Source: Euryarchaeota archaeon UBA549 (lineage in GTDB: Archaea; Thermoplasmatota; Poseidoniia; Poseidoniales; Poseidoniaceae). Taken from it: 52,136 nucleotides of DNA. The translations under genes and the position numbers were made by a program. Below are positions 50,087 through 52,136 of the stretch, piece by piece; positions within the stretch are counted from its first letter, which is position 1; every line of letters starts with the position of its first letter. The stretch spans positions 1 to 52,136 of the forward strand of contig DAGF01000067.1 of NCBI GenBank assembly GCA_002495645.1. Reading direction: 5' to 3'. Under the pieces are notes generated by a model. That model ran no database searches, was not told the DNA's origin, and saw nothing but the letters and a program-made list of their open reading frames with translations.

Positions 50087-50719
50087 CTAGAGTTGGTCGC
50101 CAGCCCACTTCAACACCTCGGCTTCTGCAGTTTGAAGGTGTTCTTGATACGTTGAGCGTGCAATACCCAATATGTCTGCAAGTGCTTGGATGGTGATGGA
50201 TTTCGGTTCGTTGTAGTAGCCGTGCTGGGTGGCCAGACTGTAGCATTCATGCTGCCGTTGGGTCAACACATCAATCAGTGAGTTGCCCTCTTCACGGATG
50301 TCCCTGACCCGAATGTCCGCAGGGGGAAGGAAGACCTTGCTCAATTTGACAAAGGAGGAAATGGCTTGGGGTATGCCCCGGAAGGTCAGGGTCAATGTTC
50401 CGTTTTCAAATTCGGTTGGGAGCATGATGTAGATGTTTTCTGTAGTGGAAGCCAAACACACCAAGGCATGGGTGTTCCAGATGACGAGCGCACCCCCCTC
50501 CCGTTCGTTGACCTCCTGTTCAACGGTGATGTACGGAATCGCTTCAAGGTCCTTCACCGATTTCCCCTCTCTGAAGACGGGGAGGATAATCTGTCGAACC
50601 CCTTCGGGTGTGATGAGAAGGTTGCCAATAAACGAAAGGCGTTGAACAACATCACCAAGAAGTGCGAGGTCGGTGTTTGCGAGGGCCTCTCTGTCCCACG
50701 ATACGGAGACCTCTCTCAT
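50087..50719 (-). CDS. Bat-type (HTH_10) transcription regulator with N-terminal domain of unknown function
   Basis: The C-terminal LTQRQHECYSLATQHGYYNEPKSITIQALADILGIARSTYQEHLQTAEAEVL is the archaeal HTH_10/bacterio-opsin-activator-type helix-turn-helix. It lies 52 nt upstream of aroA' on the same strand. Confidence 0.75.
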   Translation of the reverse strand: MREVSVSWDREALANTDLALLGDVVQRLSFIGNLLITPEGVRQIILPVFREGKSVKDLEAIPYITVEQEVNEREGGALVIWNTHALVCLASTTENIYIMLPTEFENGTLTLTFRGIPQAISSFVKLSKVFLPPADIRVRDIREEGNSLIDVLTQRQHECYSLATQHGYYNEPKSITIQALADILGIARSTYQEHLQTAEAEVLKWAGDQL

Positions 50720-50767
50720 GAGTCATGGCGGTTTCTCCACCTTGTTAGAACTTTGGTGATTATGAAC

Positions 50768-50781
50768 GGGCAAGAATGCCC
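50768..50781. promoter_or_regulatory. short palindrome GGGCA-N4-TGCCC in the divergent promoter region between the Bat-like regulator and the coiled-coil gene
   Basis: It is read directly in the 89-bp intergenic region at 50720-50808. It is too short to be significant on its own. Confidence 0.25.
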
Positions 50782-50808
50782 ATCGCATGTTTCAAGAGGT
50801 AGTTGGTC

Positions 50809-52136
50809 ATGGATGAAACCATGGAATTGGCCGATTATGTTCTCACCATTGCCCTTGGGGGAGCCTTCCTTCTCGGTTTGATGTTCATCGTCATGCGCCG
50901 AGAAGCGCAAGTCAATCTTCAGAGTGGCATGAGTGCAGAGGGCTTGTTGCAACAGCAATCTGGAATGGGCTTTGGCAAGGCGAAGAAGAACCTTGACCGC
51001 AAGTTGGCGACCATTCAAGACCTTCTCCGACAGCAAAACCAAGGCGACCGGCAACTCGCAGAGGAGCGGTTTAACCGCCGCCGGCAAGAACAAGCTAGTG
51101 CCGAGGAAGAGGCTCGCCGTCAGCGTGAATTGTTGGAAGAGCAGCGCCAGTCTGAACTTGAAGAGGCTCGCCTCCGCGAGGAGGAAGAAGCTGCTCGAAG
51201 AGCCGCTGAACGTGATGAGGAAGAGGCTCGCCTTGCGGAGGAGCAAGAAGCAGCCCGTCAATCCGATTTGGCAGCCGCTGAGGAAGAACGCCTCTCCGAA
51301 ATAGAAGCTGCTCGGCAGCAAGAAATGCTGGAATCCAGAGAAGCGGCCCAACGCGCCATGTCCGAACTTCGCGCTCGGTTGGAGCGTGAAGGGGCCCAAT
51401 CTTCGGACGTGCAGATTTCGCTGATGTGGAACAACTACAACGATTTGGACCTCCATGTCGTCAGTCCATCCGGTGAACGCATCCACGGTGGCAACAAGAA
51501 ATCCGCTTGCGGCGGTGAACTTGACGTTGACGCGAACGTGCGAGCAGAGACTCGCAAACCGGTCGAAAACGTGTTTTGGGAAGAAGGAAAGGCACCCGCA
51601 GGGCGATATCAAGTGTACGTTCACTACTACAAGAAGCACAAAAAGCGACGCAGCAAGGACCCCACCAAGTTCCAGGTCATCATCAACGAAGGTGGCGACC
51701 CACGAGAATACAACGGTGAACTCTCGATGGGCGACCCCATCATGCTGGTTGCAGAATTCAACCTTCCATCCCCCGAAGAGCGAGCCGCTCGTCGAGCAGC
51801 CTTGGAGGAGGAACTCCGCGCTGCCGGCATGGATGTTCCGGAGGCCGCAGCGGCCATTTCGGAAGTTGAGGAAACCCGTCAAGCGGAGATGGAGGCTGCT
51901 GAAGCAGAGCGCCTCGCTGAGATTGAAGCGGCCCGAGAGCAAGAGGTGCTTGAGGCTCAAGCGGCAGCTCAACGCGCCATGTCCGAACTTCAAGCACGTT
52001 TGGAGCGAGAAGGCGCCCAGTCGTCAGATGTGCAGATCTCTTTGATGTGGAACAACTACAACGACCTGGATTTGCACGTCGTGTGTCCATCCGGAGAACG
52101 CATCCACGGGGGCAACAAGAAATCCGCTTGCGGCGG
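50809..52136 (+). CDS. membrane-anchored coiled-coil protein with tandem DLDLHV-type (DUF2135/YfaP-like) modules; 3' end lies outside the window
   Basis: The frame is open from ATG 50809 to the window edge (442 codons plus 2 nt), so it is absent from the ORF track. [32 protein letters not shown] supplies one TM, followed by ~190 aa of E/R/A/Q-rich sequence. A ~125-aa module comes next: [45 protein letters not shown]...[27 protein letters not shown]...LVAEFNLP. A second charged spacer and the start of a near-identical second module follow. Confidence 0.8.
   Translation, partial: [442 protein letters not shown]
51271..52136 (+). repeat. 621-bp direct tandem duplication inside the 50809+ gene (copy 1 at 51271-51891; copy 2 at 51892 to the window edge)
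   Basis: Both copies encode AAE(E/A)ERL(S/A)EIEAAR(Q/E)QE...AAQRAMSEL(R/Q)[30 protein letters not shown](S/C)[17 protein letters not shown]. Where both copies are visible (51271-51515 vs 51892-52136), the nucleotides differ mostly at third codon positions. Confidence 0.85.

Follow-up and report, generated by a model that had tools for sequence, protein, structure and literature searches.

What kind of protein is encoded where a reading frame with one membrane helix, long charged segments and a repeated module runs off the end of a marine archaeal contig, and what might such a protein do? The contig is DAGF01000067.1 of Euryarchaeota archaeon UBA549 (GenBank assembly GCA_002495645.1), and the window, meaning the whole stretch of DNA that was analysed, comprises 52,136 nucleotides of its forward strand. 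The original prediction, made from the letters alone, took the host to be an archaeon, and its order is indeed Poseidoniales (Marine Group II, MG-II). The gene at the end of the window is real, and its product carries modules of the YfaP/DUF2135 family on long charged helices. We tentatively read it as a membrane-tethered, probably metal-responsive scaffold for binding or tethering that has no enzymatic role, with a probability of about 0.45.

The list of open reading frames (ORFs) for this part of the window gives just a 425-aa ORF on the minus strand and short ORFs on the plus strand. The plus-strand gene is missing from it because its frame runs off the window edge and edge-crossing ORFs were omitted. 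As originally claimed, no stop codon interrupts the plus frame between ATG 50809 and the window end, a run of 442 codons. The DNA contains a direct repeat whose two copies differ at 12, 6 and 38 first, second and third codon positions of the plus frame, respectively, giving 33 synonymous versus 15 non-synonymous codon changes. Amino-acid identity between the copies is 83% in the plus frame versus 56% in the minus frame, where copy 2 also contains a stop codon. This substitution pattern shows that purifying selection acts in the plus frame. Among 72 orthologous loci the sense frame is uninterrupted; on the antisense strand, the longest open stretch of each locus is 180 aa at the median (205 aa in the orthologous locus L003). 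The AT skew of the plus strand is strongly positive here. The minus ORF is the shadow of a GAR-codon-rich gene on the plus strand, so the earlier choice of strand was correct. Tandem Repeats Finder reported no repeat, the 621-nt period being above the limit of the tool.

An initial homologue search returned only fragments shorter than 240 aa, while complete proteins came from a genome scan with the module profile, using one genome per GTDB species, which revealed at least 551 loci encoding the module. Of these, the best 79 lie on Poseidoniales contigs, with two exceptions. Two contigs assigned to bacterial metagenome-assembled genomes (MAGs), L063 (CAXQWT010000044.1, Salipiger bermudensis MAG) and L064 (CALDQY010000030.1, Rhodobiaceae MAG), carry the Poseidoniales locus of 3-dehydroquinate synthase II (DHQS II), DeoC, this gene and purP with a module identity of 78-79%, and are probably misbinned archaeal contigs. 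Locus L003 matches the window end at 94.4% nucleotide identity over 2475 nt. It encodes a 608-aa product with a stop codon and the same N-terminus; two modules follow, and the acidic tail closes with ELPSAPDLDALSED. By comparison with L003, the complete window gene almost certainly has a length of ~604-608 aa and exactly two modules, which answers the questions of full length and copy number that had been left open. Besides L003, the complete gene is visible in ~70 other Poseidoniales loci. Proteins of the Poseidonia clade have two modules and ~580-610 aa; those of other clades, including that of the first MG-II genome (CM001443.1, locus L072), have one module and ~400-455 aa.

Across ~75 loci including CM001443.1, the gene is located between a block of DHQS II and DeoC aldolase genes and a convergent purP gene, and it is a core, syntenic and single-copy gene in the Poseidoniales. 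The window ends inside the gene, and contigs L002, L018, L029 and L031 start inside it, because the internal repeat breaks short-read assemblies. Public catalogues consequently hold many partial fragments of this gene. On L001, a 1.9-Mb polished long-read contig, the orthologue (L001:7576-8498) is frameshifted into two called pieces and many of its neighbours are fragmented, which suggests that this assembly retains indel errors.

The start M-x-L-x-D-Y, common to all of the ~70 orthologues, corresponds to ATG 50821 in the window, which is probably the true start rather than ATG 50809; residues are numbered from it. An upstream in-frame extension, ‘MFQEVVR’, is present in many orthologues but was rejected as coding sequence: frameshifting indels follow it and its variation is not codon-patterned. 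The single N-terminal transmembrane (TM) helix of the original prediction is borne out by hydropathy, by the AlphaFold 2 (AF2) model and by its conservation in orthologues, which keep an LGGxF..G motif in it. Counted from the proximal Met, the N-terminal tail has 5-6 residues in ~70 orthologues and is acidic, with no Lys or Arg, while 2-4 Lys or Arg residues lie just past the helix (RR or RK directly after it). Sequence-based prediction at the N-terminus found no signal-peptide n-region, consistent with the lack of Lys and Arg before the helix and the RR after it. Because of these flanking charges, the positive-inside rule predicts an N-out, C-in orientation in which the modules face the cytoplasm.

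Behind the anchor, the original prediction saw ‘heptad-like’ coiled-coil spacers. The long charged helical spacers stand, but no heptad register does: the hydrophobic fraction across the seven registers is 0.09-0.17, versus 0.12 overall, with no heptad seam in the spacer. Of the residues in a 120-residue spacer, 50% are charged and 12% hydrophobic, and there are 21 opposite-charge pairs at i/i+4. AF2 models the first spacer as an uninterrupted 138-residue helix with a predicted local distance difference test score (pLDDT) of up to 97. In this model, spacer 1 is a stalk of the ER/K type, ~20 nm long, rather than a classical coiled coil.

The module of ~125-140 aa occurs twice, as had been claimed, given the 621-nt direct repeat and two matches to a module hidden Markov model (HMM); when the whole window was scanned, this HMM matched solely at 51358-51771 and 51979-52134. 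Module 1 carries the motifs DLDLH, GGELDVDxN and PVEN and a basic loop, KKHKKRRSK. The invariant residues are S10, W13, D18, D20, H22, P26, G42, L44, D45, D47, N49, E59, N60, G71, Y73 and V77 of the module. AF2 models it as a 9-strand beta-sandwich (pLDDT 91.7, predicted TM-score 0.85). At 51475-51477, module 1 of the window reads HVVSPSG, with Ser in place of the first of two conserved Cys residues (HVVCPSG) that L003, L005 and almost every orthologue carry. Module 2 of the window retains this Cys; a polymorphism of the strain or an error in sequencing may account for the Ser.

The resemblance to DUF2135/YfaP that the original prediction had pointed out is confirmed by profile comparison. An hhalign alignment of the module profile with residues 143-257 of Escherichia coli YfaP has a probability of 97.9% (E 3.2e-13, 108 columns, 31% identity). 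The Pfam DUF2135 model (PF09906) spans only ~28 module residues and has a gathering cut-off of 22 bits. Against it, the window fragment scores 20.7 bits (below the cut-off), module 1 alone 22.7 bits and the complete L003 orthologue 35.8 bits in two stretches, and 20 of 24 family members match it. One homologue fragment is already named ‘YfaP family protein’ by NCBI, while NCBIfam gave no match to a YfaP model and only a compositional match to TolA. The module family is very large: a search of 1.84 billion proteins yields 9143 cluster representatives at E <= 0.001. It extends over archaea, bacteria and phages (phrog_1735, E 4e-23; Cellulophaga phage phi4:1, TM-score 0.69). P0070, a bacterial module relative of the lipoprotein type, is encoded directly downstream of UQ_con (E2), JAB, Prok-RING_1 and FHA genes (L084:346-3985, L085:744-6573), a gene set with the appearance of a bacterial cluster for ubiquitin-like conjugation.

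Searching PDB sequences with a profile gave nothing at E <= 10. Foldseek searches of the PDB gave no match below E 0.05; the best was MmpS5 (E 0.058, TM-score 0.39), and other entries (PLAT domains, transglutaminase barrels, lectins) reached TM-scores of at most 0.39. A relationship of the module to the P-domain, PPC or C2 was considered and is unproven in view of the lack of a significant fold match. Pfam matches to P_proprotein and PPC were weak or summed over multi-module proteins, and C2 had neither a Pfam match nor a significant Foldseek match in the PDB. A defence role was rejected, the sole PADLOC match being a compositional one to a ZorA tail (E 9e-4).

Literature searches for DUF2135, YfaP, PF09906 and IPR019220 found no biochemical function, and COG4676 led only to two papers on Mag proteins. 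In agreement with the original prediction, we found no described function for the module beyond the binding of MagA and MagF to MagD. These two Pseudomonas aeruginosa proteins (COG4676, YfaP family) reside in the periplasm, and each of them binds the alpha-2-macroglobulin MagD 1:1 (PMC3735191, PMC5764988). The domain family is already known and uncharacterised biochemically, the only experimental data being this bacterial binding partner. The neighbours of the archaeal gene in the window and in ~75 orthologous loci are DHQS II, a DeoC-type aldolase, HTH_10 and purP.

Complete orthologues end in a strongly acidic, disordered tail that closes in [LIV]-P-x-[AM]-P-D-L-[DE/G] (LPxAPDLD). This terminal motif is present in nearly all orthologues (for example L003:2920-2970) and in two or three copies in L032-L035. 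The frequent PSAP core of the motif resembles the eukaryotic P(T/S)AP; its second position varies among S, G, P, N, A and E. In one clade, the one-module orthologues have an EF-hand pair (PF13499, 31.3 bits; loop DKDGDGxVSxxEY) between the module and the C-terminal motif, and this insert links the protein family to Ca2+.

From these features we propose how a scaffold of this kind might be built. Given the charges around the TM helix, the N-terminal tail would be external and the remainder of the protein cytoplasmic. The charged helix would act as a stiff stalk of ~20 nm, holding one or two binding modules off the inner face of the membrane. In each module, the invariant acidic cluster (DxDxH, LDxDxN and EN) would bind a metal, probably Ca2+, and the polybasic loop would probably bind an anionic or protein ligand. 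MagA and MagF, the only relatives that have been studied, each bind a protein 1:1. The proline-rich terminal motif may recruit a further partner.

Several observations weigh against this proposal. We infer metal binding from conserved acidic residues alone. Spacer length differs widely among clades, which makes a precise ‘ruler’ function unlikely. The topology can be questioned on two counts. In most aligned Poseidonia loci an upstream in-frame ATG exists that would add an N-terminal tail with 1-3 Lys or Arg residues, weakening the charge argument; we take that stretch to be promoter sequence. In addition, bacterial relatives mostly place the module outside the cytoplasm, examples being proteins with a zinc ribbon or GYF-like domain, TM helix and module, proteins with a zinc ribbon, TM helix, module and Lectin_C domain, and lipoproteins. 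Further extracytoplasmic relatives include fusions with PD40 and OmpA and the signal-peptide proteins YfaP, MagA and MagF, the last three periplasmic. Because most bacterial relatives place the module outside, a cytoplasmic module would be a minority state.

The location of these relatives also gives the best surviving alternative its support. The protein could be an extracellular envelope strut or adhesin resembling TolA, in which the TM helix would be an N-in, C-out signal anchor, the charged helix would span from the membrane to the surface layer and the YfaP modules would bind a ligand of the envelope or environment outside the cell. TolA itself gives a weak compositional match (TIGR02794, E 0.0011) that points the same way, although its score is far under the cut-off. 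We consider this alternative unlikely, at about half the probability of the cytoplasmic scaffold. An acidic N-terminal tail free of Lys and Arg, followed by a helix with RR or RK directly after it, is the opposite of a signal-anchor n-region, and the archaeal modules form a subfamily of their own, marked by EF-hand inserts, paired Cys residues and a polybasic loop.

Beside the mostly extracytoplasmic bacterial relatives there is a second topological class, which includes the Poseidoniales proteins and combines an N-terminal anchor of reversed charge with ER/K-rich linkers. In counts over sequences that are not phylogenetically independent, the basic loop has 4.4 Lys or Arg residues in the predicted C-in class versus 1.05 in the predicted C-out class, and is 13 versus 9 residues long. 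In the same counts, the frequency of Cys is 0.53 versus 0.17 at the first position and 0.79 versus 0.27 at the second. At the same site, some relatives have a Cys4 motif (CPCG...CPCGG) and no TM helix after their zinc ribbons (P0065). These differences are consistent with the archaeal modules being a distinct, cytoplasm-facing subfamily.

A somewhat less probable alternative keeps the cytoplasmic orientation and makes the protein a tether for the cytoskeleton, division apparatus or nucleoid, in the manner of ZipA or EzrA. In this case the anchor and stalk would set the position of a partner-binding domain, LPxAPDLD would dock onto a cytoplasmic polymer or machine, and the modules, needing no metal, would act chiefly as spacers or for oligomerisation. 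The predicted order of an N-out anchor, long charged linker, globular domains and conserved terminal peptide would suit such a tether, as would a core, single-copy, syntenic gene among housekeeping genes. We found no sequence or fold similarity to known division or cytoskeletal proteins, however, and the strictly invariant acidic cluster speaks for modules that are more than spacers.

A more specific proposal, and in our view a long shot, is that the protein is a convergent counterpart of synaptotagmin-like tethers, cytoplasmic and Ca2+-responsive, whose metal-loaded modules would bind anionic lipid, nucleic acid or a partner. Finally, the idea that the plus frame is non-genic, with either the 425-aa minus ORF coding or the region being a non-coding repeat, can draw on the length of that ORF and its presence in the mechanical ORF list, but is effectively refuted by the third-position bias and synonymous excess of the plus frame, the minus-frame stop in copy 2, the disruption of the minus ORF in orthologues whose plus frame stays open, and the thousands of homologues and confident fold of the plus-strand product.

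Table 1. Positions of the features discussed. Coordinates refer to the window unless a locus handle is given; residues are those of the protein.
Feature	Position	Strand	Description
Open-ended gene for membrane-anchored tandem-module protein	50821..52136	+	Frame open to window end; alternative upstream ATG 50809; ~165 codons beyond edge
N-terminal TM helix, directly followed by RRE	50827..50898	+	Mean Kyte-Doolittle hydropathy ~2.5 over 19 residues; AF2 helix, residues 3-26
Conserved juxtamembrane segment including GFGKAKK	50899..50982	+	Conserved across genera; predicted disordered, AF2 pLDDT <50, residues 28-55
Charged helical spacer 1, predicted ER/K type	50980..51393	+	E 28%, R 19%, A 18%, Q 12%; AF2 continuous helix, residues 54-191
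YfaP-type module 1	51358..51771	+	Lead-in helix and 9-strand beta-sandwich; module HMM domain E 2.3e-68
Charged helical spacer 2, A/E/R-rich, one G/P break	51772..52011	+	AF2 helices, residues 318-336 and 340-397
YfaP-type module 2, cut by window edge	51979..52136	+	Module HMM positions 2-53, E 4.6e-26; complete in L003
DNA direct repeat	copy 1 51247..51515, copy 2 51868..52136	+	79% nucleotide identity; period 621 nt, one spacer-plus-module unit
Antisense 425-aa shadow ORF, not a gene	50716..51993	-	Broken in repeat copy 2 and in orthologues
Conserved non-coding block CGCATGTTTCAAGAGGTAGT	50784..50803	+	Near-invariant in 23 Poseidonia loci; candidate BRE/TATA core promoter
Divergent HTH_10 regulator, 210 aa	50087..50719	-	Pfam HTH_10, E 1.3e-15, residues 152-203
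EF-hand-bearing orthologues	L036:9410-10654; also L037-L045, L050, L051; P0077		

The non-coding DNA upstream of the gene (Table 1) contains the conserved block CGCATGTTTCAAGAGGTAGT, located 18-37 nt 5' of the conserved ATG 50821. Downstream of it, the 23 Poseidonia loci have 12-15 variable nucleotides with indels of 1-3 nt. Based on archaeal TATA-to-start spacing, this block is a candidate TFB recognition element (BRE) and TATA element for a leaderless mRNA starting near 50821. A second near-invariant block, CTTGTTAGAACTTTG, is found at 50741-50755 on the other strand, ~25 nt upstream of the start of the HTH_10 gene. The two blocks are candidates for back-to-back BRE/TATA promoters of leaderless transcripts, or for operator sites of the regulator.

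An 89-bp gap separates ATG 50809 from the divergent gene, whose product had been described as a ‘Bat-type regulator’. The HTH_10 domain of this 210-aa protein is real, but a Pfam scan detected neither of the sensor domains GAF and PAS in it, and its N-terminal 150 residues matched no Pfam family. The divergent pairing that the original prediction pointed out is present in the window and in the Poseidonia clade, where the HTH_10 gene is adjacent, but it is not kept in all clades: elsewhere the gene is absent or ~4 kb away. Several clades have lost it or have it displaced by an insert of ~4 kb, which weakens the pairing of regulator and target as a functional clue. HTH_10 identity across loci falls from 97% to ~34%, a much faster divergence than that of the neighbouring DeoC and purP. 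Further along the minus strand, the DHQS II gene (48196-49227) has a weak match to the Hint module (PF01079, E 5e-4, residues 226-257, below the cut-off) that is probably spurious.

Marine Group II archaea rank with the most abundant uncultured archaea of the surface oceans, and a conserved, syntenic gene shared across an order of such organisms merits attention. We found no description in the literature of the archaeal architecture, with its anchor, ER/K stalk, tandem basic-loop modules and acidic tail with terminal motif. The archaeal form offers a clean case for finding what a YfaP-type domain binds. Should the synaptotagmin-like proposal prove true, it would mean that archaea abundant in surface oceans have a Ca2+-binding fold of a new type, together with a system for Ca2+ signalling or tethering, and it would assign a first biochemical function to the very large DUF2135/YfaP superfamily.

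Several known systems resemble the archaeal protein in part. TolA shares a single N-terminal TM helix, a long charged helix rich in Ala and Glu and a globular C-terminal domain, and gives a weak HMM match. However, that match covers the charged helix alone and scores 18.3 bits against the TIGR02794 cut-off of 59.45, and the archaeal protein differs in its opposite predicted orientation, its unrelated globular domains and its lack of TolQ, TolR or TolB neighbours. The spacer resembles ER/K single alpha-helix (SAH) domains in its very high content of Glu and Arg, its dense i/i+4 opposite-charge pairs and its lack of a hydrophobic seam. In contrast to those domains, it is rich in Arg, Ala and Gln with almost no Lys, and its assignment to the SAH class is a predicted one. 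Synaptotagmin and extended-synaptotagmin tethers are analogous in layout only, with a short external N-terminal tail, one TM helix, a charged linker and tandem beta-sandwiches of ~130 aa with clustered Asp and a polybasic patch, the cytoplasmic facing of the archaeal modules being predicted. The modules have no detectable sequence or fold relation to C2 domains, and the single C2-containing entry listed by Foldseek has a TM-score of 0.19.

The closest comparison is with E. coli YfaP and P. aeruginosa MagA and MagF, which have a homologous beta-sandwich and share the W..NDLDLHV, G.LD.D and G.Y.VY..YY motifs with the archaeal module. Those proteins are secreted, periplasmic and ~260 aa long, with a signal peptide and one module, and are encoded in alpha-2-macroglobulin operons (yfaS/magD). 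In contrast, the archaeal protein is predicted to have no cleavable signal peptide, and no macroglobulin domain appears among its neighbours in the Pfam lists of L001 and L002. Its N-terminal anchor carries reversed charge, its helices are long and charged, its modules come in tandem and include a PVEN strand and an inserted polybasic loop, and its acidic tail ends in LPxAPDLD.

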